54,684 bases of DNA from a virus. The stretch lies in the UHGV virus genome UHGV-0199215; one strand, given 5' to 3'. The translations under genes and the position numbers were made by a program. Of the stretch, positions 3,858 to 36,944 are shown piece by piece; positions within the stretch are counted from its first letter, which is position 1, and the number at the start of each line of letters is the position of its first letter. The notes under the pieces were generated by a model. It searched no databases. It was not told the origin of the DNA and saw only the letters and a program-made list of their open reading frames with translations.

Positions 3858-3903
3858 AAGTTTAAAATAATTCTTGACACATTGCAAGCGGTCACACTAA
3901 CAT
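3858..3903 (+). promoter_or_regulatory. conserved phage promoter (UP-like TTTAAAATAATTC, -35 TTGACA)
   Basis: TTGACA at 3874-3879, 17-18 nt spacer, weak -10 CTAACA/TAACAT; member of repeated promoter family. Confidence 0.6.
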
Positions 3904-3937
3904 TTGTCACGAACGAAACACACTGAGGAATCAAACA

Positions 3938-4108
3938 ATGACTAATGAAGATGTTGCTAAACAATTGCGAAAAATCGCGGATCTGATTGATAGTGGTGAA
4001 CTTTTACCAATTCGTGTCCGTAAGAATAACGATATTTTAGGTCAAACTGGTAAACTTGAAATTGTTTTTCATTTACCCGCAAAACAAGAGGAATCAAACA
4101 ATGACTAA
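3938..4108 (+). CDS. small protein (56 aa) upstream of dUTPase
   Basis: ATG at 3938 with GAGGAA; stop overlaps the dUTPase start (ATGACTAA). Confidence 0.4.
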   Translation: MTNEDVAKQLRKIADLIDSGELLPIRVRKNNDILGQTGKLEIVFHLPAKQEESNND

Positions 4109-4604
4109 CCTGTATATCAAAAAACTAACATCCCACGCTGAACTTCCGACACGTGTAACACCAGACAGCGCCGGGTTAGACGTTCGTGCTTGCCTGTGGG
4201 AAGAATCGGTAACCATATTCACAGAATCAGGCGCTAAAGTGGAACGTCCGGTTGTTGCAGGAACAATCGCATTATGGCCCGGCGACCGCGCTATGATCCC
4301 CACTGGTCTGAAAATGTCAGTTGATAGCGGATATTGCATTAAATTATATCCACGTTCCGGCATGAGTCTTAAACACGGGCTGTCACTGATCAACTGTGTG
4401 GGTATCGGTGATCGTGATTACAAAGAAGAATACTACGTTACGCTGACTAACCACGGGCAGAAATTACAGACTATCGCAGACGGTGAACGCGTTTGTCAGC
4501 TCATGGTTGAACGTGTCGAACCTGTTAACCTGGTTGAAGTGGAAGAATTACCAGATATTGATAGTCAGCGTAATGGCGGGTTTGGATCAACAGGACGGGC
4601 GTGA
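4101..4604 (+). CDS. dut: dUTP diphosphatase (dUTPase)
   Basis: Motifs AGLDVRA, IPTG, PRSG, GIGDRDY and RNGGFGSTG match the five dUTPase motifs. Confidence 0.9.
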   Translation: MTNLYIKKLTSHAELPTRVTPDSAGLDVRACLWEESVTIFTESGAKVERPVVAGTIALWPGDRAMIPTGLKMSVDSGYCIKLYPRSGMSLKHGLSLINCVGIGDRDYKEEYYVTLTNHGQKLQTIADGERVCQLMVERVEPVNLVEVEELPDIDSQRNGGFGSTGRA

Positions 4605-4930
4605 TGAACAATCGTGATTTATTAGTCAACGCAGCACGGGCTGCTGAAATCCAGGGTAAATATTACGTCGCGTACGACGAACATTACATAAACGAAGGTA
4701 TTGATATAGGTAATGGTCGCCTGTGGAACCCTCTTACACGTAATGAGGATGCTTTCAGTCTGATGGTTAACATGTACATGGATCTGGATGTTCGTGACAA
4801 CGAAGTGACGGTTAATAACCCTGACACTGGCGTTAGTTATAAGCAACCAGTTAGCCACGGAGAAGACCGTGAAAAAGCAACGCGTTTAGCGATCGTCAAC
4901 TGTGCTGCAATTGTGGGATCGTATTTATGA
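4604..4930 (+). CDS. hypothetical protein
   Basis: ATG at 4604 overlaps the dUTPase stop (TGATG). Confidence 0.5.
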   Translation: MNNRDLLVNAARAAEIQGKYYVAYDEHYINEGIDIGNGRLWNPLTRNEDAFSLMVNMYMDLDVRDNEVTVNNPDTGVSYKQPVSHGEDREKATRLAIVNCAAIVGSYL

Positions 4931-5391
4931 AAAGTTTTTGTGAAAAACACATGCGTGATAACAGTGATCAAAAACATGGTATTTGTCCTGACTGTGTGAA
5001 TGAAAAACAACAATGGGATGGTGAAGGTTTACCACCTGTCGGTACAGTATGCGAGTGGTTAGCAAGCGTTGATCACGATTGGGTAAAGGTGACGGTATTA
5101 GGTCATCATGGTGATGATACATGGTTAAAGCCTGATGACGGTACACAATCATTTATTGTAGGTAACGCGGAAAACTTCAGACCTATTCCGAATGAACGTG
5201 AAAAGGCTATTGATGAAATGAGAAATTCGGTTACTAACTATAACAATACATCTGTTATTCACGCGATAGAGCAACTTTATGATGCTGGTTATCGTAAATT
5301 GTCAGCAATGCCCAGTTTTAAATGGCAATATTTCTGCAGTACATGTGGGCGTATAGTTGAACCAGGTCAGGAACATAATCACAGGTGCTAA
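4927..5391 (+). CDS. hypothetical Cys-rich protein with WDGxxLPPxG motif
   Basis: 154 aa; CPDC and CSTCG clusters; ATGA overlap with upstream gene. Confidence 0.5.
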   Translation: MKSFCEKHMRDNSDQKHGICPDCVNEKQQWDGEGLPPVGTVCEWLASVDHDWVKVTVLGHHGDDTWLKPDDGTQSFIVGNAENFRPIPNEREKAIDEMRNSVTNYNNTSVIHAIEQLYDAGYRKLSAMPSFKWQYFCSTCGRIVEPGQEHNHRC

Positions 5392-5393
5392 CC

Positions 5394-5642
5394 ATGACGA
5401 TATTTAAAAACGCAATGGGCGATACTGTCGCGTATCTGCCGAAAGTCATTATTGCAGATCCGTCCTGTGTTGATTACCCACACAGCAAGCAATCTGAAGC
5501 GACCTACAACGACCTGTGCGTTGATATTATGCGTGGTTGTGACATCGGTATTGAACGACTTCAGAAACTTCGGGAGGAATACGAAAAACGGTCTGTACAG
5601 GCCGCAATGGGTTTACCGACTGTCTACGACAATTTAAAATAA
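5394..5642 (+). CDS. hypothetical protein
   Basis: ATG at 5394 after AGGTG; track ORF begins at a GTG at 5385. Confidence 0.45.
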   Translation: MTIFKNAMGDTVAYLPKVIIADPSCVDYPHSKQSEATYNDLCVDIMRGCDIGIERLQKLREEYEKRSVQAAMGLPTVYDNLK

Positions 5643-5680
5643 TTCTCGACGGATTACACAAGGACGTGTAACCTACAAAC
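5636..5680 (+). promoter_or_regulatory. degenerate copy of the conserved promoter (-35 TCGACG)
   Basis: TTTAAAATAATTCTCGACGGATTACACA matches the family except T to C in the -35. Confidence 0.35.
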
Positions 5681-5704
5681 ATCAAAACAAAGGAGGACAT
5701 AATC

Positions 5705-6049
5705 ATGTCATTCACTATTTTATGGATTCTTTTCTCTCTGGTTGTCGCGGGTGTTGCCAAACAAACAGGTCGTAACCCTGGTGTATGGTTCTTTATCGCA
5801 TTTCTCACAAGTCCTGTGATCGGTGGTCTGATTTTGCTAATAGCATATCTGTTTAACGGTAAGGTCGTAAGGGGACAACCGAAAGTGGTAACCACGGGGA
5901 TGTTCAGCAATTACCTTGCAGCCTATAACTATGTCAATGAACATTACACTATTGATACTGACTACCGGGCAGAAGCAGCAAGTGACCTGTTTAAGTATGC
6001 TACCTGTCGCGAGGACTGTGATAAACTGATCTCGAAGTATGTTAACTGA
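5705..6049 (+). CDS. small membrane protein
   Basis: Strong AAGGAGGA Shine-Dalgarno; two hydrophobic helices at N-terminus. Confidence 0.55.
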   Translation: MSFTILWILFSLVVAGVAKQTGRNPGVWFFIAFLTSPVIGGLILLIAYLFNGKVVRGQPKVVTTGMFSNYLAAYNYVNEHYTIDTDYRAEAASDLFKYATCREDCDKLISKYVN

Positions 6050-6064
6050 CAGGAGAAGACTTAA

Positions 6065-6397
6065 ATGCGTTTTGAAATTCTTGAGCTTGTTAAATATGAC
6101 AAGACTGCTGCTGAAATTCTGGTTGATGCAGTTGCTGACAATGAAGTGAAATTTAAACTACTTAACAAAGTCTGGAAATACATTGTAACCACGACTATTG
6201 TTGAGCAAGCATCACAGTTTAAGGAAGTTGTCGCTGACATGTACGCGTTCACTGGCGATGATGAAGTCAAACTGCAATTGCTTGATAAAACGCTGGAACG
6301 TGCGATCAACAACAGTTATCCGTTACAGACTCGTATTCAGACTGCGATTGATGAAGCGAGTAAATTACTGTCAATCGTGCAGCCTGAAACTAAGTAA
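6065..6397 (+). CDS. hypothetical protein
   Basis: 110-aa ORF with AGGAGAAG upstream. Confidence 0.5.
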   Translation: MRFEILELVKYDKTAAEILVDAVADNEVKFKLLNKVWKYIVTTTIVEQASQFKEVVADMYAFTGDDEVKLQLLDKTLERAINNSYPLQTRIQTAIDEASKLLSIVQPETK

Positions 6398-6429: not shown

Positions 6430-7785
6430 TCAGTCGTCAATAGACGGTAATCCGTCCCCAGCTTTATCAATCCCCGTAATAGGTAGACCCGCCTCTTTAT
6501 ATACGTATTCCTGAAGGTCTGGATCCGGGAATACAGGTGCGCCAGCTTGTGCTAAACGAGCAAGTGCCGTAGTCAATGTTTCAATACTGTCTTTACTGAT
6601 CGACCCGGCGCGAATCGACGGGCGGTATTCATCAGGAAATGCGTTTAACGACCATAACTGCGGTATCAACTGACGATTAACACATTCTACAATACTATCA
6701 ATACGTGATTGCATTGCGCGGATCCATAATTCAGTACGACTACCCAGGTTAGCGTTATTCCCGGTATTACCACCCGTTCCGAAAAACATGAAATCTGCCA
6801 GTAACGCGCGGGCAATACTGGTATCCAGACGTTTAATCGTCCGGTCAATATCCACAGAACTGGTCTGGTTAGGTGTAACGAATTCCAGTTTCACCTGTTG
6901 TTCACCACCATACGTGGTAACACCTGTTTCGTTATCATAACCCGTGATATACGGTTTAGAATAAATCACCAGCCCTGATTGTTCATTGCGTTTGATATTG
7001 GCGACGATATTTTCATAGTTATCAATCATCGCCTGTGCTGCCTGACGTTGTTGTTCAGGAACGTTGGGGTCATTAGCCGCTTTCTTAATATCTGCGTTAA
7101 CAGTAATTACCGGGAACCCTGTACCACGTTCGGCAAGTATGGATTCGATTTCCATATTCACTTTTTTGTAGTACCACGGACGATAAGCTGTGCGCAGCAG
7201 TGATAAACCTTCCGGGTTACCTTTATTCGGACTTGAAATCAAATGAAGCGAACGGTCACGCGTGATTAACGTCGTTGTACCCTGGTTAGGTGAACGTTGA
7301 TAAATACCACGAACATAACCTGTCGGCTCTTCAATATCCCAGCCAGCAAGCGTTTCAGGTGCTACAGGAACCAGACGGGCAATACCCACAGTGCCGTCAT
7401 CAAGGTCTTTGACCCAGATGTCATACCAACCCCAGCCGAATACATCAACGTCTGTCCATGTCTGAACGAACGCGGACCAGGTATCATCCGGGAGTGCACC
7501 ACGCGGATCACCCATTTTATTTTCAATAGCATCCTGTAACCATTCTGAATAACGAATAGCTTCTGGATCATCTTTGTCAGACGGGTCAAAAATCCACTGT
7601 ACAGAACGATAAACGCTACTCATAGCGAATAACACACCGCCAATAGTTTCGTCGTTCTCAGCCATCTGACGCAGAATACGACGGCCTTGTTTACCGTTCA
7701 GCTTAGGAAGGAAATCGTCGTTTACCTGGTTGCCTGTTCGACTGTACCCGGCAACGGCTAGTTGTTCGAATTGTTGATCAGCCAT
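6430..7785 (-). CDS. portal protein
   Basis: 451 aa, between terminase and head morphogenesis genes in minus-strand order; portal-like size and composition. Confidence 0.8.
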   Translation of the reverse strand: MADQQFEQLAVAGYSRTGNQVNDDFLPKLNGKQGRRILRQMAENDETIGGVLFAMSSVYRSVQWIFDPSDKDDPEAIRYSEWLQDAIENKMGDPRGALPDDTWSAFVQTWTDVDVFGWGWYDIWVKDLDDGTVGIARLVPVAPETLAGWDIEEPTGYVRGIYQRSPNQGTTTLITRDRSLHLISSPNKGNPEGLSLLRTAYRPWYYKKVNMEIESILAERGTGFPVITVNADIKKAANDPNVPEQQRQAAQAMIDNYENIVANIKRNEQSGLVIYSKPYITGYDNETGVTTYGGEQQVKLEFVTPNQTSSVDIDRTIKRLDTSIARALLADFMFFGTGGNTGNNANLGSRTELWIRAMQSRIDSIVECVNRQLIPQLWSLNAFPDEYRPSIRAGSISKDSIETLTTALARLAQAGAPVFPDPDLQEYVYKEAGLPITGIDKAGDGLPSIDD

Positions 7786-7851: not shown

Positions 7852-7896
7852 GGTGTTAAAATAATTCTTGACGTATTGCAAACGTACGATTATGCT
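7852..7896 (+). promoter_or_regulatory. conserved phage promoter
   Basis: -35 TTGACG 7868-7873, 17 nt spacer, -10 TATGCT 7891-7896, upstream TTAAAATAATTC. Confidence 0.65.
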
Positions 7897-7927
7897 TTAG
7901 TCATCAAATGAACGAAGGGTGATAACT

Positions 7928-8239
7928 ATGAAACCGAATGAAAATATTACACAACTGGATATTGCTTTTGGACCTAAAAACATTGCTGAATTTCTCCCGG
8001 CGATGGGTAGTATTCCGAAAGAATTTTTCGAAAATTCTAACCCGTGGAATCAGTGGGTCAGCAAATGGTTTTTCAATGGTCTGAAAGAATACGCAGTTGC
8101 TGTTAACGGTGTGAACTTTAAACAGGCCCACGCGCATATCAAAGTGATCCTGGGTAGTTTCGAACCTAAACACGAACATAAAATTGCCGGGTGTGCGTAT
8201 CTCGCGTCAATGTGGTTTGTACCGGAGACACTAAAATGA
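7928..8239 (+). CDS. hypothetical protein
   Basis: ATG at 7928 after AGGGTGA. Confidence 0.5.
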   Translation: MKPNENITQLDIAFGPKNIAEFLPAMGSIPKEFFENSNPWNQWVSKWFFNGLKEYAVAVNGVNFKQAHAHIKVILGSFEPKHEHKIAGCAYLASMWFVPETLK

Positions 8240-8571
8240 AAATAAATATGGGAAACGGTAAAGTAATAATTGACGGTAGGGAATTTACAGGACGTAAATT
8301 TGAAATTAACGGTGATAAAGTAATTGTTGATGGCATACAGGTTGATGGTAATCTGGTTGGTAACATATCTATCAGTGTTTATGGTGATGTTGAATCCATT
8401 GAAACGACTAACGGTGAAGTTAACATTTCAGGAAACAGTGGAGATATCAAAACGGTTAACGGTAATGTTTCTGTTACTGGGGATAGCGGTAATATCAAAA
8501 CAGTTAATGGAAATATTACTACAAAGTCATGTACTAATTCACATTCCGTCAACGGTATCATCCGTAACTGA
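8236..8571 (+). CDS. repeat protein, bactofilin-like / beta-helix-like
   Basis: Periodic Gly/Asn/Val repeats (e.g. SGDIKTVNGNVSV, SGNIKTVNGNITT). Confidence 0.5.
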   Translation: MKINMGNGKVIIDGREFTGRKFEINGDKVIVDGIQVDGNLVGNISISVYGDVESIETTNGEVNISGNSGDIKTVNGNVSVTGDSGNIKTVNGNITTKSCTNSHSVNGIIRN

Positions 8572-8583
8572 GGAAGAATAATC

Positions 8584-8913
8584 ATGAATCATGTAAACGC
8601 TATTCGCTGTAATGATGAATATCAGTGTTCACACTGTGGTAAATCGTGGGATATCCACGAAGAAGCGCCAGATTGTAAAATGACACTGATTGAAATGGGT
8701 CTTTGTAAAACTGTAATGTATTTTGGATTGTCAGTAAGTATACCAGAAAACTATACAATTATTACTACTGATGCTGATGGTGAAGTTTATGCGTGGGAAC
8801 ACGACCCATACATTAGCGGTAGCTCATGGTATGATCCTGATATTCCGTTTATTCATATATGTAAAGTAAACCTACACGGACTGAACTGGCGGGAGACTCT
8901 AAGAAAATGTTAA
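8584..8913 (+). CDS. Cys-rich hypothetical protein
   Basis: 109 aa; CxxC pair near N-terminus; GAGGAAG upstream. Confidence 0.5.
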   Translation: MNHVNAIRCNDEYQCSHCGKSWDIHEEAPDCKMTLIEMGLCKTVMYFGLSVSIPENYTIITTDADGEVYAWEHDPYISGSSWYDPDIPFIHICKVNLHGLNWRETLRKC

Positions 8914-9475: not shown

Positions 9476-11239
9476 TTAAAAAATGTCACCGTATTCAGGA
9501 GTACCAACAGGATTCACACCACCAGTAAATGGTTCTTCAACGAATTCAGTGCGTTTTGGTGATAGTGCAATAACCGCAGCATCGAAAAAGTTTGGTGACT
9601 TACTTCCGTTTGGTTTCTTGTCGATCACAATCTTCCCGGCACCGTTACTGGTATACGTTGGCTGACTTAACTCAGCTTCTAACCGTTGTGCATTTTCCAG
9701 TGATGGATCAATCAGAATGATTTCGTCCGGATCCTGTGGTTGACCTTCCACATACCATTTATAAATTCGCTGGCAACGCAAACGTAATGCCCACGAAGCC
9801 TGTGCTTTATAATTTGAGAAATAATCTTTGTTTGATTTACGGTCTTTGTCACCAGGTTTCGTACCACCGATAATATCACCACCCGGATCCACAACTTTTC
9901 CATTCGGTAACCACGGGCGCACACGGAAGCGTAAAGTATCTTTACGGTCATTTGCCGCTACTTTAACGCCTGTACCAACACCGTTAACTTCGTACCAGTA
10001 TTCATCAACACCCAGCATATTAGCCATCGTCAGCATCCCTGGTGCAGCCAGTTCAGCGCCCCTGTTGTCAAGTTGCAAATGTGTCAGGAATACCCCGTGA
10101 GCAATTACCAGTGCGCTTGCGTCTTCACCACCGTCTGCGGCATCCTGTCCGGCGATACGTTGACCTGTTGGTGTAAGTAGTCCATTAGCTTTGCGCCATT
10201 CTGTGTCACGGAACGCATCAAAAGCAGCGCGTACCCATTCAGCTTTAATCAGTACACCCTGAACAGCAGCGGCATAATCGCGGTCAACTTCCTGTGCGAA
10301 AATATGCTGTAAACCTTTTTCAGCGAATGATTGTTTTTCTCGCTTATACCATTCGTCATCTTTAGCCGGGTGATCGCGCCAGTCCAGAACCATGACACGC
10401 AATTTACCACGAGGTAATTTCTTGCCCGGTTCCCACTCCAGACCAGCTTTACGATTGCGATAAAAAACGTTACCAACGCCATTAACTGAACTGATGTCGA
10501 TACGAACGTTGGTGTTAGCTGACAACGACGCTTCGATCAGCTCAGGACGATCTACGTGTGCCGCTTCATCCAAGAAATAGACAGACTTACGACCACCACG
10601 ACCGATGTTATCGCCAGCTTCGCCAGTAATTGTTGCACCGTTTTCAGGATTGATACATTTCATATAAACCAGATGGTCTTTTTCACGCAGGCCAACAGGA
10701 CGTAATTCCGGTGGTAATGCGCGGATAATCTGGCGAATCTTTTCAAAAATACTATCCGGGTCACCCAGTTTATCGACAAGCTGTTCTTTACGTGATCCCC
10801 AGCCAACTGAAGAACCGGGACGATACAGCCACGCCCACACAGACAAACCACAGGCTACCCAGGTCGCGCCATAGTCTCGCGATTTTTCCCAAAGCCCTTT
10901 TTCTTTGTCTTCAAGCGCTTCGTAAACAAACTGAACCATATCAATCTGACGTTCGAACAGGCAGAAAGGCATGTTGGGTGGGTATTCAGTACCAACGTTA
11001 CGCGGGTCATAAGTAAACGCCCAGTCGAGAATGAACGCTACAGGGTTTGTTTCGTAATACTTTTTCAGTACCGGGACAATTGCCCGATCCGTGCGCATAC
11101 GATTTAACAGGTTAATACGGTCAATATAACACTGTTTGTAATCTGGTCGTGGCTGACCTTTTCGCCAGATACGTTCGTCGTTTGCGTAAGCATCCCGCCA
11201 ACGCGGGTAATTATGAATATTTCCAGTAAACTTATTCAT
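9476..11239 (-). CDS. terL: terminase large subunit
   Basis: 587 aa, ATPase plus nuclease-sized protein upstream of portal in minus-strand order. Confidence 0.85.
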   Translation of the reverse strand: MNKFTGNIHNYPRWRDAYANDERIWRKGQPRPDYKQCYIDRINLLNRMRTDRAIVPVLKKYYETNPVAFILDWAFTYDPRNVGTEYPPNMPFCLFERQIDMVQFVYEALEDKEKGLWEKSRDYGATWVACGLSVWAWLYRPGSSVGWGSRKEQLVDKLGDPDSIFEKIRQIIRALPPELRPVGLREKDHLVYMKCINPENGATITGEAGDNIGRGGRKSVYFLDEAAHVDRPELIEASLSANTNVRIDISSVNGVGNVFYRNRKAGLEWEPGKKLPRGKLRVMVLDWRDHPAKDDEWYKREKQSFAEKGLQHIFAQEVDRDYAAAVQGVLIKAEWVRAAFDAFRDTEWRKANGLLTPTGQRIAGQDAADGGEDASALVIAHGVFLTHLQLDNRGAELAAPGMLTMANMLGVDEYWYEVNGVGTGVKVAANDRKDTLRFRVRPWLPNGKVVDPGGDIIGGTKPGDKDRKSNKDYFSNYKAQASWALRLRCQRIYKWYVEGQPQDPDEIILIDPSLENAQRLEAELSQPTYTSNGAGKIVIDKKPNGSKSPNFFDAAVIALSPKRTEFVEEPFTGGVNPVGTPEYGDIF

Positions 11240-11302: not shown

Positions 11303-11344
11303 TTTAAAATAATTCTTGACAGATTACAGGCTTGCGGTTATGCT
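11303..11344 (+). promoter_or_regulatory. conserved phage promoter
   Basis: -35 TTGACA 11316-11321, 17 nt spacer, -10 TATGCT. Confidence 0.65.
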
Positions 11345-11487
11345 TTAGTTATCAAATGAACAGGGGTAGTGAATCGTGGAAGAATATACGTTTGTAATAG
11401 GCTTTATCACGGGTGCTTTAACCGTGTTCGCAGGTATATATGTTGGGTCTAAAATCAGTCGGTAAATGAACAGAGGGTTTAAAGAAG

Positions 11488-11664
11488 ATGAAAGTTAAAA
11501 TTACAAAATCAAACTGTACTTTCGTTAAAATTGGTGAAGTTACAGAAGTTTTAGATAGTATCAGTGGTCATAAACTATTGTGGTCTAATTCACTCCTGAA
11601 ATACGAAAAATTATCATGGGTTGTAAATTTCTGGGGTGTGAAATACGAAGAAGTAAAAGATTAA
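11488..11664 (+). CDS. small protein (58 aa)
   Basis: ATG with AGAGGG/AAGAAG upstream; below track cutoff. Confidence 0.35.
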   Translation: MKVKITKSNCTFVKIGEVTEVLDSISGHKLLWSNSLLKYEKLSWVVNFWGVKYEEVKD

Positions 11665-11728
11665 CATGATTATATAAAACCGAATATTATTGAAACATAC
11701 ATTCAAGAAAACAAGAGGATTATACAGA

Positions 11729-11947
11729 ATGAAAATCACTAAACAAGAACTGAAAAATTTTGGCGCATGTCAGGAAGGTTTTAAACGTTTCATCATTCAG
11801 ACTAACAACACTGATGAACCGGTTGAAGTTATTAGTCTAATCGGTGGTAAAAACTTTCGTGATTGTCTGAAACAGGCTAAAAAAGCTGGTTGGGTTTTCA
11901 AAGAAAACAATACAGTTTGTTTTGCACCAGGTCATGGAGTCAAATAA
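11729..11947 (+). CDS. hypothetical protein
   Basis: ATG 11729 after AAGAGGA. Confidence 0.45.
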   Translation: MKITKQELKNFGACQEGFKRFIIQTNNTDEPVEVISLIGGKNFRDCLKQAKKAGWVFKENNTVCFAPGHGVK

Positions 11948-12264
11948 TGAATGTATCTGATAATCAAAACATGTGGTTTATCCGCAAACCTACTTGTAGT
12001 GATAAATATAAAGCTCTTGATGTCCATCATTATATTGAACAATATGAGATTATAAATAAAACACCAAAAGGTTGGCGTGTTAAATGTCGTTACAGCGATA
12101 AAGGTCGTGTATTACTCAAAAACTCTTATCACTGTTTTTGTTCTGAAAAAGACGCGCTAGAATTCCTCGCAAATGAGGCCAACAACATGGCGGCGTTGTT
12201 AGATGAACGTAAATTAACATATGTTCGTCTATTGTGTGATTGTCGTGATGCGTTAAAAAGGTGA
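11947..12264 (+). CDS. hypothetical protein
   Basis: TAATG stop-start overlap with upstream ORF. Confidence 0.45.
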   Translation: MNVSDNQNMWFIRKPTCSDKYKALDVHHYIEQYEIINKTPKGWRVKCRYSDKGRVLLKNSYHCFCSEKDALEFLANEANNMAALLDERKLTYVRLLCDCRDALKR

Positions 12265-12271
12265 TTGAACT

Positions 12272-12433
12272 ATGAAGATATTTCTCAAACGATTATTCTG
12301 CAAACACGAATGGTATTTATATCGTACTATCCACGGTGATGAACGTAATTACGCCACTCAGGAACACCGTTGTAAGTTGTGTGATAAACATCGCTATTCA
12401 GGTGGTAATTATAATGTGGAACATTTGTCATAA
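12272..12433 (+). CDS. small Cys/His-rich protein (53 aa)
   Basis: CKHEW...CKLCDKH pattern; short. Confidence 0.35.
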   Translation: MKIFLKRLFCKHEWYLYRTIHGDERNYATQEHRCKLCDKHRYSGGNYNVEHLS

Positions 12434-12686
12434 ATCCGGGCGCGTACTGTTCACCACAAATGATGAACGGACCGCTATGAATCGTGCTAAATACGGGTGG
12501 AGGGTTAAAAAAGTGGATGACCGTTACGAAATTGCAAAACAACATGGAATGTCGATAGAGTTCATCGACTGGTTCTGGGAGAACAAGAAAGCCAGTTCAG
12601 GTAGTGTCTGGTTTATCACCATGAGCGCAATGTGGGAAGGATGGAAAGCCAGTCGGGAACAGTTACATGTGGAGACATTGAAATGA
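12414..12686 (+). CDS. hypothetical protein
   Basis: In-frame ATG at 12414; start uncertain. Confidence 0.4.
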   Translation: MWNICHKSGRVLFTTNDERTAMNRAKYGWRVKKVDDRYEIAKQHGMSIEFIDWFWENKKASSGSVWFITMSAMWEGWKASREQLHVETLK

Positions 12687-12904
12687 GTTTGCTTGGTTTA
12701 GTTAGTGCATTTGTAGTCGGTATGATAGTTGGAGTAATGTTAATGGTGTTGATTGTTGTACTGGTAATGCGAACTTAGTTGGGAAAGGTGAAAAGTCAGT
12801 CGTTAACAACGTACCAGCCGAAACCCCTGTTAAATTATCGTAAATCCTATACCATCTTCACCAGTTCCACACTACCCTGAAACTATCAAACAGGAGTGTG
12901 GAAC

Positions 12905-13111
12905 ATGTTCAGATACGTTTTAAAATTACTCGCCATCATTGCAACCTGGCTGATCATACAGTCCGGGTATGACCTTCGTGTTCGTAACCAATGCTCAGAC
13001 TATCAACGAATTACACGAACTGCGACAATCTACAGTCACGGTATTTGTTACGCCGCAGACAGTGACGGACAGTTTAAAATAATTCTTGACGGTTTACACA
13101 TCATCAGATAG
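12905..13111 (+). CDS. small membrane protein
   Basis: CAGGAG 8 nt upstream of ATG 12905; hydrophobic N-terminus. Confidence 0.4.
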   Translation: MFRYVLKLLAIIATWLIIQSGYDLRVRNQCSDYQRITRTATIYSHGICYAADSDGQFKIILDGLHIIR

Positions 13112-13114
13112 ACT
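13070..13114 (+). promoter_or_regulatory. conserved phage promoter
   Basis: -35 TTGACG 13086-13091, 17 nt, -10 TAGACT. Confidence 0.6.
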
Positions 13115-13146
13115 TCAGTTTGTGTAAAACAACTGGAGTTATCACC

Positions 13147-13413
13147 ATGTTTAAAACTGGTCAACACGTAGAAATCACCAGTCCACGACTGTTAGAAATT
13201 CTCGCACGTCGCAAATCTCAACCGTTCGGCACTGTTGTAGCGGTCGATCTGCAAGCTGAATACCCGGTTAAAGTTCGCATCACTGACGATACAGGGTTTC
13301 AAATCCCCTTCACGTTCAACGGTGAACAGTGCAATTACACTTTCTCATTTACTATGAACGGTCATCATGACCATCGTAGCCTGACACCTGATTTAAAAGT
13401 GGTGAACGTATGA
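13147..13413 (+). CDS. hypothetical protein
   Basis: ATG 13147 after GGAG. Confidence 0.45.
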   Translation: MFKTGQHVEITSPRLLEILARRKSQPFGTVVAVDLQAEYPVKVRITDDTGFQIPFTFNGEQCNYTFSFTMNGHHDHRSLTPDLKVVNV

Positions 13414-13565
13414 TCTTAGATTACATGATTAAATTATTAGGTTCCGCTAACACGTTGTGGGGTGTTCCACCACAAGGAATTATTACTGATCGTAAACAAC
13501 CACATCGTAAAACAGGTATTGCAAAAGCCCGGCGCGACGCGAAGAAAAGAAGGAACAGGAAATGA
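13410..13565 (+). CDS. small basic protein (51 aa)
   Basis: ATGA overlaps at both ends; Lys/Arg-rich C-terminus. Confidence 0.3.
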   Translation: MILDYMIKLLGSANTLWGVPPQGIITDRKQPHRKTGIAKARRDAKKRRNRK

Positions 13566-13759
13566 AACTATCAGAAGCACAAGATTATCAGCGTAGAATT
13601 TCAGACCTCATTAAACAGTTAAACTGTACGATACACGAAGCCTCAATCGTCGGAATTAATGTTGAACTTGATTTATACGAAGAACAAAAACTAAGTGGTG
13701 TAAACACTGTTGTTCTTGACGGAAAAGTTACTATCAAACCACAGGACATTGAACTATGA
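13562..13759 (+). CDS. hypothetical protein
   Basis: 65-aa ORF translationally coupled to neighbours. Confidence 0.45.
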
Positions 13760-14679
13760 ACTTCTTTAAAAACGCAATCGTTTATCGTCTGACTAATCCT
13801 ATGGTATTAATGGCCCAGTTACCAACACTGGAAGACAGTCTGTGTGCGTTTCAATTCAATCCGTGCGGTTCACAGGATATGGCACGTACTGGTTGGGTTC
13901 CGGCAACTGAACAACATCATACACTGGTTCACCAGGCTAACGGGCAATATTTGCTGACCATCCAGAAACAGGAAAAGATTATTCCGGGTCCGGTCATTAA
14001 ACAGCATCTGAACGCGCGAATCGCCAAACTGGAAGCTGAACAGGCGCGTAAACTGAAGAAAACAGAGAAAGATAGCCTGAAAGATGAAGTATTGCACAGT
14101 CTGTTACCACGAGCATTCGTTAAAAACAGTCGTACACAGTTGTGGATTGATATCACTAGCGGGTTGATCGTGGTTGATGCGTCCAGTGCTAAACGGGCTG
14201 AAGATGCATTAGCACTGTTGCGTAAATCCCTGGGTAGTCTGCCAGTCGTCCCGCTGACGATGGAAAACCCTGTTGAACTGACAGCAACGGAGTGGGTACG
14301 TTCAGGAAACGCACCAGCAGGTTTTACAATGGGTGACGCTGCTGAACTGAAAGCGATCCTGACTGACGGTGGTGTTGCACGCGTTAAAAAACAGGATTTA
14401 ACCAGTGACGAAATAGCCACGCATATTGAAGCCGGGAAAGTTGTTACAAAACTGGCGTTGGACTGGCAGCAGCGGGTAACGTTTACGCTAACTGACAGTA
14501 TGACATTAAACCGTGTGAAGTTCTGCGATGAACTGGTGTTACAGAATGACGATATTGAACGTGAAGATATGTTAGCCCGGTTCGACGCTGATTTTGTACT
14601 AATGACAGGTGAACTTCAGGCGCTGATCAAACAACTTATCACTGCTTTGGGTGGGGAGGCGAAACGTACAAGTTACTGA
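13756..14679 (+). CDS. rdgC: recombination-associated protein RdgC homologue
   Basis: 307 aa; N-terminus [12 protein letters not shown] resembles E. coli RdgC (MLWFKNLMVYRL) and length matches. Confidence 0.75.
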
Positions 14680-14687
14680 AACAAAGT

Positions 14688-14728
14688 TTAAAATAATTCT
14701 TGACGGATTACACAGGGAAGTGTAAATT
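14688..14728 (+). promoter_or_regulatory. conserved phage promoter
   Basis: -35 TTGACG 14700-14705, 17 nt, -10 TAAATT. Confidence 0.6.
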
Positions 14729-14763
14729 ACTCACATAGACAACAAAATGTGAGGAACTGGAAA

Positions 14764-14937
14764 ATGACTAAATCTAAGATGAAAAAAGTGCTGAAAACCT
14801 GGATGGAAAACTACAACTGTTCTCTGGAAGATGCTGTTATCATCGCTCACAAAAACCACCCGTCACTTTCCGCAGTTATCGCCAGCGCTGAAATGGATCT
14901 AATGGTTGAAGGTTTATTGAATGCTGCTGGAATCTGA
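14764..14937 (+). CDS. hypothetical protein
   Basis: ATG 14764 after GAGGAA. Confidence 0.45.
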   Translation: MTKSKMKKVLKTWMENYNCSLEDAVIIAHKNHPSLSAVIASAEMDLMVEGLLNAAGI

Positions 14938-15184
14938 AAAACAAGCCGTCGCCCTATTTGAAAAAATGGGGCGTTTTTACGTTGAACAACGACTGAATGA
15001 AATTAGTGATTCAGCTACTGAACGTTATAACAATTGCCGTGATATTCCTGGTGGTTGGTGTGTGATTGATTTTATGACACCAGATGAACTATCAGAACGT
15101 CACATATTGTTATTGGCTTTGACACTATGTACCGATCCGGTTAACGAAGCACGACAAAGAATTTTGCAGAGACGTTTAAAATAA
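14921..15184 (+). CDS. hypothetical protein
   Basis: 87-aa ORF; 3' end overlaps the next promoter. Confidence 0.45.
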   Translation: MLLESEKQAVALFEKMGRFYVEQRLNEISDSATERYNNCRDIPGGWCVIDFMTPDELSERHILLLALTLCTDPVNEARQRILQRRLK

Positions 15185-15217
15185 TTCTTGACGGATTACA
15201 CTGTTTTACCCTATAAT
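15172..15217 (+). promoter_or_regulatory. conserved phage promoter
   Basis: -35 TTGACG 15188-15193, consensus -10 TATAAT at 15212-15217. Confidence 0.7.
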
Positions 15218-15252
15218 TATCTCATTGAAACAGACAAGTTAGGAACTGGAAA

Positions 15253-15441
15253 ATGAAAAACTTCGAAACTAAAGCAGAGTGTGAAAAATATATCGTAGCT
15301 GAATATGGTGAATGTGCTTTTCAGGTCGGTGTAATTTTCGCTTATCGTGTAAAACCAATCGAAGCAAAAATGTTTGGTTTGGTTGAAGGTTCTTATATGT
15401 CCAGTAACGAATTTGATGAAGCAACAGGGTACGGTCGTTAA
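15253..15441 (+). CDS. hypothetical protein
   Basis: Initiation region GGAACTGGAAAATGA duplicated from the 14764 gene. Confidence 0.45.
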   Translation: MKNFETKAECEKYIVAEYGECAFQVGVIFAYRVKPIEAKMFGLVEGSYMSSNEFDEATGYGR

Positions 15442-15647
15442 TGAATTATATTCCAAAATGCCTTCGTGAAATACCGAAGGTAAAACAAAAACCCCGTAAA
15501 CAAGCGATAAAAGAAGCGAAAATTGAGGCTTTCAATATCGCCATTTCTATAATCAACGATAAATGTCGTATCGAAAAATCTGATCGCATGAAATCAAACA
15601 TGTTTTCAGCAATGAGCGAAATAGCGATTTTACGTGATAAGCTCTAA
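15441..15647 (+). CDS. hypothetical protein
   Basis: 68-aa ORF, ATG overlaps upstream stop. Confidence 0.45.
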   Translation: MNYIPKCLREIPKVKQKPRKQAIKEAKIEAFNIAISIINDKCRIEKSDRMKSNMFSAMSEIAILRDKL

Positions 15648-15755: not shown

Positions 15756-16391
15756 CTATTTAAGCGCATTCTGATACAGTTGCGCGATATCGTCGATGGT
15801 TGCACCTTCAGGAACACTCTGAACCACGTTACCAACCACACCAGACAATTCCACCCGGTCGATACTGTTACCGGTGATCTTATCCAGTTGTTCAGACGCT
15901 TTTGCACGAGTTTTCGGGTCGAACAGTTCACGCGTCACCAGAATGTATCCGCCCAGCATGTAACGTTTGTAGCAAACTACGTACTGTTGCAGATGGCTGG
16001 GGATATCGTCGGTACTGTTCACCCACAGGTGTTTCGCTTCTGTGTCGTCTTCACCAGGGACGATAACGCGTTGACAATACGGTTCCAGTAATTCTTCAGC
16101 CGTGCTTGCCGCTCGTTTCCACCACTCGACACGACTCGTTAACGATTCCCCGACAGACTCAAGCGCATGACTTCCCATCGCGTCCAGATAGTTCAACACC
16201 TTCGTATTCGACAGGAGGCGGTGTGCAGTGACTTTAGCTGCGTCAGGGTCTTTATGCCCCGGATAAGCGTGTAAGACGCACTGAGCGTTGCTGAAGCCGT
16301 TATTGACACGATCTAACCACAGGTTAGCGAAACGGAGTTGATCAGTTGTTAACTCCAGAGCAGCCCTTTTAGCCCGGTCTGAAATTTTCAT
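15756..16391 (-). CDS. terS: terminase small subunit (putative)
   Basis: LTTDQLRFANLWL...AYPG resembles the LTxKQxxFxxEY...AGYS signature of small terminases; first in minus-strand packaging order. Confidence 0.55.
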   Translation of the reverse strand: MKISDRAKRAALELTTDQLRFANLWLDRVNNGFSNAQCVLHAYPGHKDPDAAKVTAHRLLSNTKVLNYLDAMGSHALESVGESLTSRVEWWKRAASTAEELLEPYCQRVIVPGEDDTEAKHLWVNSTDDIPSHLQQYVVCYKRYMLGGYILVTRELFDPKTRAKASEQLDKITGNSIDRVELSGVVGNVVQSVPEGATIDDIAQLYQNALK

Positions 16392-16454
16392 AAATTTGTC
16401 TCCCATAAATTTTAAATTAGTTTCCCACAGATACCCACGGGTTGTCCACACGCC

Positions 16455-16892
16455 CTGTTTTACAGCTAATACAATGTTAGTATTAATTTTACAGTTAGTG
16501 CACAACATGCACTAATTTTCGACTATATACATAAATACGCAATCCATAATCACAATAATTTCAAAGACTTGCATAAAAACATAGATTACAATAGGTATCT
16601 CCCAGACTTTTATTTTAGCTCTATTTACAGCTAATACACTATATGCACTATCTCTATCTTTCTATACTACTTCTTTTTTATATCTATGTTTTCTATGTTA
16701 TCTATGAAAAGATAATAAAAAGAATAAGATAGGGAAGGGTTGGTTAAAAAGTAAACATGACGAAATCTATGTTAAATATAACTTTAATGCACAATATGCA
16801 CTATATAATTCACAACGTGCATTAGCTGTACCAACATAGATACACAACGTGCACTAACAGCTAATACACAACGTGCATCTTGCACTAGCTGC
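16455..16892. promoter_or_regulatory. array of operator-like sites (core GCTAATACA / ACACAACGTGCA)
   Basis: At least 6 related sites at about 16462, 16498, 16627, 16786, 16809 and 16841-16892 in a 550-bp AT-rich divergent intergenic region. Confidence 0.5.
16685..16771. repeat. 87-bp conserved intergenic element, copy A
   Basis: About 93 percent identical to 54457..54543. Confidence 0.7.
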
Positions 16893-20895: not shown

Positions 20896-21084
20896 CTAGT
20901 CTCCTTTAGTGCGCAGGTGGTTTTTCCAGCGGTTTTGCGCCGCGCTGGGCTTTTTGCAAAAACCACAATCCATCATCCCGTAATATTTTATTAACCCCAT
21001 TCGTCGGTTGCTGAGTCTCACCCACTGCCAGACGCCGGGACCGTTTCTACGAACTAACAGAATCTTTGCTTTACGGTTTTTCAT
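20896..21084 (-). CDS. hypothetical protein
   Basis: 62-aa ORF with CGFC pair. Confidence 0.45.
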   Translation of the reverse strand: MKNRKAKILLVRRNGPGVWQWVRLSNRRMGLIKYYGMMDCGFCKKPSAAQNRWKNHLRTKGD

Positions 21085-21848
21085 AACCGGTGCTCCTTCA
21101 GTGCTTTTAACGCTTCAAACTGTTCAGCAGTAAGTTCAACCAGGACTTTACCACCTTCCTGGCGGGTTGCAGACCATTCACCACGGATTGCTTCCACTGC
21201 AGACCGTACCAGTTTAGCGGGTGGACGACGCGTGACTACAGGTTCTTTATCACCTGCTTTAAACTGGCGAATGGCTGCTGATGCGCTGATTTCACCATTC
21301 TGGATCCGGCGTTTAAGTTCCAGCGGCATATCAAGAATATTCAGTTGTTCGTAAACGTGCTGAACGGTTTTACCGACCTGTGTAGCGATCTGCTCAACAC
21401 TCATGCCATATGAACGGAAACGACCGTAAATAACAGCACGTTCAACAGGGGACCACGGTTTACCTTCATTACCTTTTAACAGTGTCAGGGTCTGTTGTAG
21501 TTCGTCACCGGACGATTCAACAACATCTACTGTCAGAATCGGCGTCCCGGCTTCAATAGCTGCCAATACGCCACGTAAACGATGCTCACCATCCTGGACA
21601 TACGGAACACCGTCAACAACCTGTACCACGATGGGTGGAACGAAATCGCCGTTGGTATAAGCCTGACGAAAGTTTTCAATGTGTGCCAGTGCTGCTTCAG
21701 TTTCCCAGTAGTTGTCGGTAAACACACCGCGTGGGTTATGTCCTGGACGAATCTTGATAATACGCGGATCAATGCGATATGCGTTACCACGTTTTACGTT
21801 GGTTTTATCGGTATCAGACAGCTTGCGAAGGGAGTTAATGTTAGCCAT
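21081..21848 (-). CDS. ParB-like nuclease domain protein
   Basis: 255 aa; ParB/sulfiredoxin-type N-terminal region plus HTH (SVEQIATQVGKTVQHVYEQL). Confidence 0.7.
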   Translation of the reverse strand: MANINSLRKLSDTDKTNVKRGNAYRIDPRIIKIRPGHNPRGVFTDNYWETEAALAHIENFRQAYTNGDFVPPIVVQVVDGVPYVQDGEHRLRGVLAAIEAGTPILTVDVVESSGDELQQTLTLLKGNEGKPWSPVERAVIYGRFRSYGMSVEQIATQVGKTVQHVYEQLNILDMPLELKRRIQNGEISASAAIRQFKAGDKEPVVTRRPPAKLVRSAVEAIRGEWSATRQEGGKVLVELTAEQFEALKALKEHRL

Positions 21849-21924: not shown

Positions 21925-22315
21925 GATATGGAACCCACACAGTTAAACCAGCTTTCAACATGCGACGATGCATATCAGCAGTACCACGCCCACCGGGGAA
22001 CACAACACCGTATGTAGGACGTGGCTCACCCTCTAACATCGCCTGATTACGTTGATGACCTGCAACAGCGTTATAAGCCCCGTGCTTACCCTGTTTTACA
22101 ACCGCACCAGGTACAGTCAGATCGTCCCACGCTGCCGGGCAACTACGCACAGGAATACCGTGTAATTGCGCCCATTGCTTACACAGGTTATCAACACCTG
22201 ACGCACCACCTTCAATTAGTTCGGTAACCGGAAATTGTTTGTGAAGTAGTCCTAACGCGGAAAACACTGCTGTTCTGTCGTTAAAGTCACGACCACCTGT
22301 GACGACAATTATCAT
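21920..22315 (-). CDS. DUF2493-like (SLOG / Rossmann-fold) protein
   Basis: VVTGGRDF...GGASGVD...VFPGGRGT pattern. Confidence 0.55.
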   Translation of the reverse strand: MIIVVTGGRDFNDRTAVFSALGLLHKQFPVTELIEGGASGVDNLCKQWAQLHGIPVRSCPAAWDDLTVPGAVVKQGKHGAYNAVAGHQRNQAMLEGEPRPTYGVVFPGGRGTADMHRRMLKAGLTVWVPYP

Positions 22316-22992
22316 TGTTTATTAGCCTCAAATACAGCGCGAGCAAAACCACGCGGGGTTAATGAACGTAACTGTTTAGTTGTTTCAGACTTACCACCCA
22401 GATATTTCCAGCCCCAGAAGAAACCAATATTAATCGGTCCAGGACGTTTTTCAGGCATTCTGAAACCGTTACCGAACCACAGACATGTTTTCTTCGTGTA
22501 TCCGTCAAACATCGGCATTTTAGGGTGAAAAGGTTTATCATCTGTTGTCATATAACCGCCATATTCCCACGGATGAAAATAAGCGTCAGGTGTCCCCATC
22601 ATTTCAGGACGTGATAAAGCACCGACAGGGTTTTCGACCATCCAGGGTACATCATAACGTTCTCCAAGTTCCCGGATTAGTTTTGCGTTTGCCAGTGCAT
22701 ACTGTAGTTCAGCGTCATCCCGGTCATGTTGTGAACCGCTTTGAGCAAACAGGGTGCAATCCGGGAAACCAAAAATAATCGACGGTAAAGGTGTTCCCAG
22801 TATTTCCTGCTTAATTGCAAATTGTGGGTCAATCCACTGATTAACGTAATGAAGATTGGGGTGATCAGCTTTAATAAAATATTCCCCGTGATTAGCGGAA
22901 TCAGCATTAAAACAATAAACCTGATAACCATGTATCGCCCACGGTAAACCCATAATCCCGGAACCGTCGAACAATGACCAGACAATTTTCAT
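22312..22992 (-). CDS. DNA (cytosine-5)-methyltransferase-like protein
   Basis: Motif I LFDGSG, motif IV-like FPDCTLFAQSG, motif VI ENPVG, C-terminal RSLTPRGFARA. Confidence 0.55.
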   Translation of the reverse strand: MKIVWSLFDGSGIMGLPWAIHGYQVYCFNADSANHGEYFIKADHPNLHYVNQWIDPQFAIKQEILGTPLPSIIFGFPDCTLFAQSGSQHDRDDAELQYALANAKLIRELGERYDVPWMVENPVGALSRPEMMGTPDAYFHPWEYGGYMTTDDKPFHPKMPMFDGYTKKTCLWFGNGFRMPEKRPGPINIGFFWGWKYLGGKSETTKQLRSLTPRGFARAVFEANKQ

Positions 22993-23484: not shown

Positions 23485-25839
23485 CTAACTATTACTCGCA
23501 GGTGGAAAAGGCACTACATTAGCTGTTGACTGAAAAGGGAGAAGACGAATACCCCTGAAACCGTTTAGTCGAACGTTATTTATATTAACAACGTCTTTTT
23601 TCACTTTACCACGAAGGGTGGATTTAAACGCCCGACTAAATGCAGTTTTAGTCATTGCTGGACCACCTTCCTGTGTTTTCCAGAGACGATAACGACCATA
23701 GAGTTCTTCAGTGTGCACCTCACCATCAGATACCAATTCGCAACAATCTCTGATAAAACTTCTAAGTGGTGATTGTTGATCCATAATTTCCTGACGTTCT
23801 TCCAGACTTGCTTTTGGTTCAGTAAACCGTCCGTTTGCACGTAACCGTTGTAAACCTTCAATCGCCCAGTTACAGATCCCCGGTAGTTCTTTCATCAGTC
23901 GTGCTTCCAGAGTGGTATCTTCACGACCCAGGAACGAAATGTTGAACGGCAGGATCAGCAAACGGTTAGCCATTGCACCGGAATCATCAGCAAATGCAGG
24001 TATGTTGTTAGCAGCCAGTGTCATACGTCCAGGTAAACGACCGTTCCATGCACCTTTATACTTACGATTAACCGGAATCGCATCACAACCTGTAATAGAT
24101 TTGAAACGGTCCAGAATTCGGTTGCGGTCAGGCCCGGACACACTGTGAGCATCACCAATAAACAGCACAGATTTATCCAGCACAGTTTCAAGTACCGCAT
24201 CACTGGCTAAACCCTCCAGTGTGATCCCTGCATACGCTTCATCACCTACCAGTGCCTGAATGATGCGACCAATCGTACCTTTACCGGAACGTGGCGCACC
24301 AATCAACAACATCGCTTTCTGATAGTCGTACGAGTTGACAAGCATGTAACCCAACCATTCCTGCAACAGTGCAATACGTTCCTGATCACCTTCCAGAGTT
24401 GTATTAAGAAACTGTTCAAATGCTGGCGCACGGGCAAACGGATCGTAGCTATACGGTAAAATACTGGTCGTAAAGAAATCAGGGTTATGTGCATCACATT
24501 TACCCGTGTGTACATCCAGTATCCCGTTCTGACAAACAATATAGTGTGATACATCAACGCCGGGCCATGTTCCAAGCTCACGATCAGCGCGTGTGAATAA
24601 ATACGACAAAACCTTGTACGTACCGTTAATTACGTCAGCTTTTGGTTCGCTGGCGAGCATTGCCATAGATATCTGATGTTTCAGTTCATCTTCACTCACA
24701 CGTTCCCACACGCGACCGTTGAACCGGTACGGCTGTTGCTGGACAAAAATCAATGTGTTGTTTGGATAATAGTTATTAACGAACGTGGATGCGTTAACCG
24801 TATGGTTTGAACCATATGCACCTTCACCGGGTTTCACACTCATGTACGCAGGTGTTCCACCATTAGGAACGACGGTAGGCGCTGGTGTGACTGCTTTCAT
24901 CAGTTCTGGTGTCATTGTCGGTTGACTACGATACACAGTATCACAACGTTCCACAGCGCCCAAAATCGTGTTTTCACGGTAATCCTGACGATCTGTCCAT
25001 TTACCACGAACCAGCCCAGAACGGTTAAACAAACGTTCAATACGTTCGCAATCTTTCCCTGTCCAGAACGCAAGGTGTGAGCACAGGGCAGCATCAGCGG
25101 CAGATGCATTGTAGTCTTTTCCCTGGTCGCTGGGGTATGACACAGACAGGCGTTCAACGTTTGCATTCCACAGATCTGCAAATGACGCTTTATTACCAAA
25201 TACTGAAGCAGCACTGGACGAATTTAACGCCATTTTAATCAGTTCATCATCGTCTGCCGGACCTGACCAGTCATCACAGGGTGCTGTTGTCCAGCGTGCG
25301 GAACGGTCTGAACGGATACGACCATACCGGGCAATAGAATCATGAATGCCCTGGGTATAATCAATATCAACATCGCCATTACCCGTGAGCGTCATCGCGA
25401 CGAAACGATCACGCCAGTACATTTCCAGCCCGGTTTTCTGGTCGTTCAGACTGTTAAAACCTTCCGGTATGCTGGTATAAGCACAGATGATATGCAAACC
25501 TGTTCCTGACTGGCTGACTTCAGTGTAAGCATTTGGAAAACGGTTTACGAATTCATGCGCCAGTGGTGACCATGTGGCTGTTGCCTGATCTACCAGACAG
25601 TTATCGACATCAATAAAGAAATAAGGGTCATTTTCTGTGAATACAAAACCAACACCAGACATGCCGTACATTTGCGCCATACCTAACGCGGTGTGATAGT
25701 CAGACCAGTCGTTAGGGTTAGTGGTACTGGCTTTATAACCGTGTACCGGGCTGTATGGTACTTTCGTTGGTTTTGGACGATCGGCAACTGTCTCAAGTCG
25801 CCACATGACCCACTGTTTACGGTTCAGTAACCCTTTCAT
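23485..25839 (-). CDS. DNA primase / helicase (prim-pol plus P-loop NTPase)
   Basis: 784 aa; Walker A GAPRSGKGT in C-terminal half; primase-sized N-terminal domain. Confidence 0.8.
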   Translation of the reverse strand: MKGLLNRKQWVMWRLETVADRPKPTKVPYSPVHGYKASTTNPNDWSDYHTALGMAQMYGMSGVGFVFTENDPYFFIDVDNCLVDQATATWSPLAHEFVNRFPNAYTEVSQSGTGLHIICAYTSIPEGFNSLNDQKTGLEMYWRDRFVAMTLTGNGDVDIDYTQGIHDSIARYGRIRSDRSARWTTAPCDDWSGPADDDELIKMALNSSSAASVFGNKASFADLWNANVERLSVSYPSDQGKDYNASAADAALCSHLAFWTGKDCERIERLFNRSGLVRGKWTDRQDYRENTILGAVERCDTVYRSQPTMTPELMKAVTPAPTVVPNGGTPAYMSVKPGEGAYGSNHTVNASTFVNNYYPNNTLIFVQQQPYRFNGRVWERVSEDELKHQISMAMLASEPKADVINGTYKVLSYLFTRADRELGTWPGVDVSHYIVCQNGILDVHTGKCDAHNPDFFTTSILPYSYDPFARAPAFEQFLNTTLEGDQERIALLQEWLGYMLVNSYDYQKAMLLIGAPRSGKGTIGRIIQALVGDEAYAGITLEGLASDAVLETVLDKSVLFIGDAHSVSGPDRNRILDRFKSITGCDAIPVNRKYKGAWNGRLPGRMTLAANNIPAFADDSGAMANRLLILPFNISFLGREDTTLEARLMKELPGICNWAIEGLQRLRANGRFTEPKASLEERQEIMDQQSPLRSFIRDCCELVSDGEVHTEELYGRYRLWKTQEGGPAMTKTAFSRAFKSTLRGKVKKDVVNINNVRLNGFRGIRLLPFQSTANVVPFPPASNS

Positions 25840-34441: not shown

Positions 34442-34787
34442 ACTCTGTTACATTGCCGGGCCTTATCGTGCTGACTGTGCGCTTAAAACATCCCGTAACG
34501 TGTCACGTGCTGAACAGGCGGGTAAACGACTGGCTTTACAACGTCCGGGATGGTTCCCGGTTATTCCTCACAAGAACACCGAATTGTGGGACTTTGACGG
34601 CGGTTTACGCAATATACAACCTGAATACTACCTGTCAGGCACATTAGAAGTTATGCGCCGCTGTGACGCTGTTCTGGTGCTTCCTGATTATCGTCGTTCG
34701 TCCGGGACTATTGCAGAAATTGCAGAAGCTGAACGTCTGGGTATTCCTGTGTATTACAGCGTGGAGAGTGTACCTGAACATGGCTAA
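34434..34787 (+). CDS. nucleoside 2-deoxyribosyltransferase-like protein (DUF4406-like)
   Basis: N-terminal YIAGPYR and CDAVLVLP...GIPVYY pattern; ATG 34434 overlaps upstream stop. Confidence 0.55.
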   Translation: MIKLCYIAGPYRADCALKTSRNVSRAEQAGKRLALQRPGWFPVIPHKNTELWDFDGGLRNIQPEYYLSGTLEVMRRCDAVLVLPDYRRSSGTIAEIAEAERLGIPVYYSVESVPEHG

Positions 34788-36918: not shown

Positions 36919-36944
36919 TGTTCTACACTCCTGGAGACTTAAAG

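Follow-up and report, generated by a model that had tools for sequence, protein, structure and literature searches.

An RdgC homologue in an accessory, promoter-headed cassette of a 9NA/Sasha-type siphophage

Gene content of the window

The window analysed here, a 54,684-nt stretch of the virus genome UHGV-0199215, belongs to a 9NA/Sasha-type siphophage (Nonanavirus/Sashavirus), with about 93–96% identity to that group in a mosaic arrangement. PHROG annotation assigns the portal (6430–7785), terL (9476–11239), terS (15756–16508), primase (23485–25839) and helicase (27049–28716) to the minus strand, and DNA polymerase (31696–33552) and the tailspike (36918–38933) to the plus strand. With primase, helicase and DNA polymerase, the replication set of the phage is self-contained. 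Two further plus-strand genes, encoding a DUF2800/PD-(D/E)XK exonuclease (29663–30808) and a Gp2.5/Enc34-like single-stranded DNA (ssDNA)-binding/annealing protein (30824–31615), appear from their sequences to form the phage's own RecA-independent recombination pair, and are preceded by a gene for a conserved 256-aa protein with no assigned function (28893–29663, PHROG 27827). A gene for a ParB-like protein and two DNA methyltransferase-like genes also lie in the replication region (21081–21848 and 22312–22992 on the minus strand, 34663–35301 on the plus strand). Phage 9NA itself is virulent, and 9NA-type phages have no lysogeny genes and use pac/headful packaging (PMC4153490).

Separately, the divergent gap between terS and the ORF at 16904 contains a dense cluster of short direct repeats that reaches into the first codons of terS (16462–16880). 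The repeats are of the ACAGCTAATACAC type (4 copies), the ATACACAACGTGCA type (3 copies), TCTATGTT(A/T)TCTAT (3 copies) and TAATGCACAATATGCACTAT (2 copies); the cluster may function as an operator array or as an origin, or may be related to the pac site.

A plus-strand block between the terminase genes

Minus-strand terL and terS are separated by a plus-strand block (11488–15647) that holds rdgC, which encodes the 307-aa recombination-associated DNA-binding protein RdgC (13756–14679, the last position including the stop codon). The interval of the original prediction coincides exactly with this ORF, which starts with ATG. A Shine–Dalgarno-like AGGA lies 9 nt 5′ of the start. The ORF listing also gives antisense ORFs within the gene (for example minus-strand 13929–14420), which are artefacts of the listing.

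The gene is the fourth and last ORF of a tightly packed plus-strand unit that starts at 13073 and in which each ORF overlaps the next, stop to start. ORF 1 (13147–13413, 88 aa) has no assigned function and gave no Pfam, PHROG or PADLOC match; its counterpart in Klebsiella phage e270.1, with 73% amino acid identity, is also located upstream of rdgC. ORF 2 (13410–13565, 51 aa) has a basic C terminus, and ORF 3 (13562–13759, 65 aa) has a weak match to PHROG 26258 and shares bases of its TGA with the rdgC start codon (ATGA, 13756–13759); neither has an assigned function. The operon neighbours of rdgC gave nothing informative when scanned against Pfam and PHROGs. We also sought an obligate partner gene and propose none: ORFs 2 and 3, directly upstream, are present in AVIO78A and were not detected in e270.1.

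The unit is headed by a repeated promoter-like element. A 26-nt sequence, TTTAAAATAATTCTTGACRGATTACA, occurs 13 times in the window, compared with 0 copies expected by chance: on the plus strand at 3861, 5633, 7855, 11303, 13073, 14687, 15175, 28755, 28819 and 54648, and on the minus strand at 21924, 23468 and 54363. Each copy lies in an intergenic gap and is oriented towards the genes downstream of it. The element comprises an AT-rich stretch followed by a −35 motif, TTGAC; a −10-like hexamer is suitably spaced downstream of it, and a ribosome-binding site and start codon are found 35–50 nt further downstream. A generic promoter and terminator scan was not enriched over shuffled sequence (18 found versus 14.1 expected), and the argument for promoters therefore rests on the 13-copy repeat.

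Four copies, all on the plus strand, lie in the rdgC block. Copy 1 (11303–11344) marks the left edge of the variable block, in the divergent gap beside terL. Copy 2 (13073–13114, TTTAAAATAATTCTTGACGGTTTACA), located by consensus scan, heads the rdgC unit with a −35 of TTGACG, a 17-nt spacer and a −10 of TAGACT, and is conserved in position in AVIO78A, Sergei, 9NA and e270.1. Copy 3 (14687–14728) begins 8 nt past the rdgC stop, where it closes the cassette at its 3′ side and opens the following unit. Copy 4 (15175–15217) has TTGACG, an 18-nt spacer and TATAAT, with 11 of 12 matches, and lies at the right junction of the deletions in Sasha and 9NA described below. The claim of a promoter-driven plus-strand cassette thus stands: four ORFs follow a sigma-70-like repeat that is 1 of 13 copies. 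The accompanying description of the cassette as early is reasonable but tentative; it follows from the promoter element that the cassette has in common with replication-gene blocks, which are headed by two copies of the element on each strand (28755 and 28819, plus; 23468 and 21924, minus). The minus-strand copy at 54363 sits within the virion-gene series.

Several observations extend beyond the cassette. The copies at 3861, 5633 and 7855 head other islands of small plus-strand ORFs between virion genes, so that, together with the rdgC block, four islands are promoter-repeat-headed (3861–5391, 5633–6397, 7855–8913 and 11303–15647). They are wedged among minus-strand virion genes (head morphogenesis, portal, terL and terS), and their transcription would be antisense to structural genes. 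This arrangement agrees with the description of 9NA as having numerous small, novel genes scattered between those for the virion (PMC4153490). A nearly identical leader and ribosome-binding site (AGGAACTGGAAAATGA) recur in two successive units of the block (14731–14767 and 15220–15256), beside the shared promoter repeat; the repeated module therefore seems to reach the start codon. The only terminator-like hairpin on the plus strand of the block (14950–14973; 10-bp stem, then TTTTT) is found 13 nt past the stop of a 57-aa ORF and inside the 5′ part of a predicted 87-aa ORF (14921–15184), and for this reason the latter ORF or its start may be mis-called.

The gene encodes a full-length RdgC

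Four collections of profiles and structures identify the product. Pfam PF04381 (RdgC; gathering score 25) matches residues 3–301 with E = 4.8 × 10^−115 and 384.4 bits, covering positions 2–298 of the 298-position profile, and a profile search of this kind had been named as the test of RdgC homology. Among NCBIfam models, NF001462 (RdgC) scores 417.7 bits, above its cut-off of 330, and the subfamily model NF001464 scores 329.7 bits, above its cut-off of 227. The best-scoring RdgC equivalog, NF001460, reaches 476.4 bits and falls below its cut-off of 501, consistent with a clade that is sister to chromosomal enterobacterial RdgC. PHROG 724 matches with E = 1.2 × 10^−126. In a search of the PDB, the RdgC structures from Escherichia coli (2OWL, E = 9.4 × 10^−129) and Pseudomonas aeruginosa (2OWY, E = 1.4 × 10^−66) align end to end, and global alignment to 2OWL gives 67.5% identity over 302 aligned residues. 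From this full-length identity we infer the RdgC fold. An AlphaFold2 model was poor (mean pLDDT 50.7), because every row of its shallow alignment of 22 homologues was at least 80% identical.

The residues defined by mutagenesis in E. coli RdgC are the finger tip (R97, K98, K100 and K101), the gate (R118 and F120) and the horseshoe (Q212, E218, H222 and K227) (PMC2965237). The basic finger tip is required for loading onto circular DNA (PMC2965237), and R118 and F120 act at the gate interface (PMC2965237, PMC1885664). All ten are identical in the phage protein: R98, K99, K101 and K102 at the finger tip, within a finger segment (92–121) that is 97% identical to that of E. coli; R119 and F121 at the gate; and Q213, E219, H223 and K228 at the horseshoe, or base, interface. 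In P. aeruginosa RdgC, mutation of the pore residues R4, K70, R81, R122, K146, R198, R208 and R252 reduces binding to double-stranded DNA (dsDNA) (PMC1885664); in the phage protein, K or R occupies each of these eight positions. The gene has a dN/dS of 0.118, at a dS of 0.28, relative to its AVIO78A orthologue. By these comparisons, the protein has an intact finger, basic pore and pair of dimer interfaces, and rdgC is under purifying selection within a phage-specific clade. With Pfam, NCBIfam, PHROGs and the PDB in agreement and every functionally mapped residue kept, the predicted full-length homology is borne out, and the gene almost certainly encodes a true RdgC.

A phage lineage of RdgC

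The best 120 database relatives of the protein are all at least 80% identical to it, and many are encoded on contigs of 55–61 kb, the size of phage genomes. We surveyed chromosomal RdgC with one genome per bacterial species, including Escherichia, Salmonella, Enterobacter, Klebsiella, Kosakonia and Citrobacter. Identity levels off at 64–67% over 80 species of Enterobacteriaceae, and the phage protein is nested in no host genus. In a joint alignment, phage proteins are 60–68.5% identical to cellular ones, whereas identity is 74% or more inside the phage clade and 78% or more among cellular Enterobacteriaceae RdgC proteins. The phage clade includes phages of Escherichia, Salmonella and Klebsiella. 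It differs from cellular RdgC by fixed residues at 24 positions, of which 20 are in the centre domain, 1 is in the finger and 3 are in the base. The plateau and the separate clade point to an established phage lineage and lead us to reject recent capture from a specific host genus.

More broadly, tblastn found homologues in about 510 of 50,697 phage records (~1%), including Vibrio, Pseudomonas, Klebsiella and Proteus phages and ICP1; RdgC homologues are also present in a few lambdoid phages (PMC12315714). Orthologues are already annotated in AVIO78A, PDP46, Bas82, PJ16, Sergei, Solent and SP069/SP-062, under labels that include 'exonuclease' (AVIO78A, similar to SP069 RdgC), 'recombination-associated protein' (PJ16) and 'RdgC exonuclease' (SP069/SP-062). 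The gene is thus real, correctly interpreted and already annotated; both its family and its phage group were known. Because copies are annotated in closely related phages and in hundreds more, the finding is an ordinary one.

Probable exchange of the cassette at promoter repeats

Close relatives of the phage, Sasha, 9NA and 536P12, do not carry rdgC, and the gene is therefore dispensable; the non-essentiality by CRISPRi of hrdC, the RdgC-family gene of P1 (PMC10695390), fits this accessory status. The boundaries of the absence coincide with promoter repeats. In Sasha, similarity on the terL side stops with the final base of the 26-nt copy 1 (window position 11328) and resumes at 15176, the start of copy 4; the Sasha junction is copy 1 joined to copy 4, with a single repeat copy there. 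The terL-side similarity of Sergei and of 9NA likewise ends at 11328. Further into the block, 9NA has a single copy at L084:4502, whose left flank matches window positions 12829–13099, through copy 2, and whose right flank matches 15175–15256, from copy 4. Exactly the stretch from copy 2 to copy 4, including the rdgC unit, is therefore missing in 9NA. Similarity to Sasha and AVIO78A also resumes at copy 3 (14687–14728). These end-points indicate that phages acquire and lose rdgC through recombination between copies of the promoter element on either side of it.

The 3′ end of the gene shows a further break. Similarity to all rdgC-bearing relatives ends 13–15 nt before the rdgC stop (window 14664–14679); AVIO78A, for which the break is 13 nt before the stop, has an extra gene and a terminator before its next promoter copy. 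The RdgC C terminus accordingly reads ...GGEAKRTSY in the window (307 aa) in place of ...GGEAKR (304 aa). A few database relatives (P0026 and P0035) are likewise 307 aa long. In both AVIO78A and Sergei, an annotated terminator is located just upstream of one promoter-repeat copy.

A possible role in damping RecA

RdgC binds DNA non-specifically as a ring, inhibits RecA strand exchange, counters RecFOR-mediated RecA loading and reduces RecA-dependent LexA cleavage (PMC2965237, PMC11077077). Our literature search for a functional study of any phage RdgC found none, and the role at the time of infection is therefore extrapolated from the host protein. By this analogy, phage RdgC would be made during infection from a promoter used by host RNA polymerase and would coat phage DNA, host DNA or both. 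As with E. coli RdgC, it would then limit RecA filament function in strand exchange, RecFOR-dependent loading and LexA cleavage. Host RecA would be kept off gapped and branched phage replication intermediates, SOS and other RecA-dependent responses would be damped, and the phage would rely on its RecA-independent pair of exonuclease and SSB–annealase to recombine its DNA. We put forward this damping of RecA tentatively, at somewhat less than an even chance. Several points count against this reading: the hosts already own a chromosomal rdgC, which leaves the benefit of a second copy unexplained; the protein misses the cut-off of NF001460, its best-scoring equivalog; the 24 clade-specific substitutions, with 20 in the centre domain, make a changed partner or specificity possible; and Bas82, a close relative that carries rdgC, was not unusually robust when challenged with defence systems in the BASEL study (PMC11990801). 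To the reading as a whole, a bona fide RdgC that damps RecA and is encoded by an accessory gene exchanged at promoter repeats, we assign a probability of roughly 0.55.

Since the finger and both dimer interfaces are kept alongside the 20 clade-specific changes in the centre domain, the phage clade might have been retooled for counter-defence or host takeover, forming mixed rings with host RdgC or coating phage DNA so that RecA-dependent or DNA-structure-sensing immunity is not triggered. We consider such retooling unlikely. If true, retooling would be the first infection-time function assigned in a family found in ~1% of phage records (510/50,697).

Other explanations change what the ring does or deny that it does anything. 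A Gam-like role, exerted through DNA coating and not through enzyme inhibition, would have RdgC bind the ends of the linear headful-packaged genome or its concatemers and shield them from RecBCD or other host nucleases. RdgC reportedly has raised affinity for DNA ends and bends DNA (PMC1885664), the injected DNA of these pac/headful-packaging phages has free ends (PMC4153490), and the annotated ORFs, most of the small ones without an assigned function, include no Gam-like gene. A protein synthesized after injection cannot, however, shield the incoming ends, the RdgC structure–function literature consulted describes no nuclease-protection activity, and Sasha and 9NA are viable on similar hosts despite having no rdgC; protection of ends or structures is accordingly improbable. 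Retention of the gene as a neutral passenger, recently taken from a host chromosome and with no role in infection, would fit its accessory status and its position in a hypervariable block. This possibility is hard to reconcile with the identity plateau of 64–67% over 80 Enterobacteriaceae species, which nests RdgC in no host genus, with a clade of its own across Escherichia, Salmonella and Klebsiella phages, and with a dN/dS of 0.12, and we regard it as very unlikely.

The structural homology between RexA and RdgC (PMC11077077), together with the role suggested for RdgC homologues located beside cI in some lambdoid phages (PMC12315714), raises the idea of superinfection exclusion or a developmental switch in place of a role in recombination. 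RexA resembles RdgC in fold alone, whereas the protein here is 67.5% identical to chromosomal RdgC and has the complete ring apparatus; 9NA-type phages have a virulent lifestyle and no lysogeny genes (PMC4153490); no RexB-like partner is recognizable in the rdgC unit; and a PADLOC scan of RdgC and six neighbours, with a library that may not include a RexA model, gave no match. A RexA-like function is thus as hard to credit as a neutral passenger. A real exonuclease is suggested by names, those of Pfam ('Putative exonuclease, RdgC'), PHROGs ('exonuclease recombination-associated') and several GenBank products, and by nothing else that we found. Nuclease activity of E. coli RdgC was undetectable (PMC1885664), and the structures, as described in PMC1885664 and PMC2965237, are of a DNA-encircling ring with no ATP-binding pocket and no nuclease active site reported. 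For the RdgC family the exonuclease reading is effectively refuted, and for the window copy it is the least probable of those considered; the widespread 'exonuclease' label on phage rdgC genes is unsupported and should be replaced by 'DNA-binding RecA modulator'.

Comparison with known systems

The phage protein is like E. coli and other chromosomal gammaproteobacterial RdgC in length and domain order; relative to the E. coli protein, its finger-tip, gate and horseshoe residues are identical, the basic charge of the pore is kept and the protein as a whole is less acidic (pI 6.3 versus 5.3). Unlike chromosomal RdgC, the window copy comes from an accessory cassette of a virulent phage and belongs to a separate clade.

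The closest counterparts, AVIO78A_005, Sergei gp07, PJ16_006 and the copies in SP069, Bas82, PDP46 and Klebsiella siphophages, are orthologous, occupy the same position between terS and terL and have 78–95% amino acid identity. The flanks are mosaic, and the break in similarity to AVIO78A gives the window RdgC a C terminus that is three residues longer. The window lacks the gene found after rdgC in AVIO78A, Sergei and e270.1, and also one small gene located upstream of rdgC in AVIO78A. With the orthologue labelled in GenBank and the family having its own PHROG, rdgC in the window adds nothing new as a sequence finding. The 9NA/Sasha group does offer natural isogenic-like pairs with and without rdgC; one phage with the gene, Bas82, can be grown on a derivative of E. 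coli K-12 in which the O16 antigen has been restored.

The wider phage membership of PHROG 724, including P1 hrdC, ICP1 rdgC and many Vibrio and Pseudomonas phage genes, belongs to the same family. These other phage copies are far more distant (24–59% identity), and their genes lie mostly beside replication or recombination genes, whereas rdgC in the window lies between the terminase genes.

The cassette architecture recalls the PeSL cassettes of T4-type phages (PMC2839356, PMC4122927), in which a repeated promoter element likewise precedes small accessory units and indels end in the repeats. Both features are found in the window, with promoter repeats before accessory units and indel end-points inside repeats. 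Unlike T4-type PeSL, the elements here belong to a siphophage, have another sequence and combine a sigma-70-type −35/−10 arrangement with an AT-rich upstream part. The rdgC gene illustrates, in 9NA-type phages, the exchange of accessory cassettes at repeated promoter elements.
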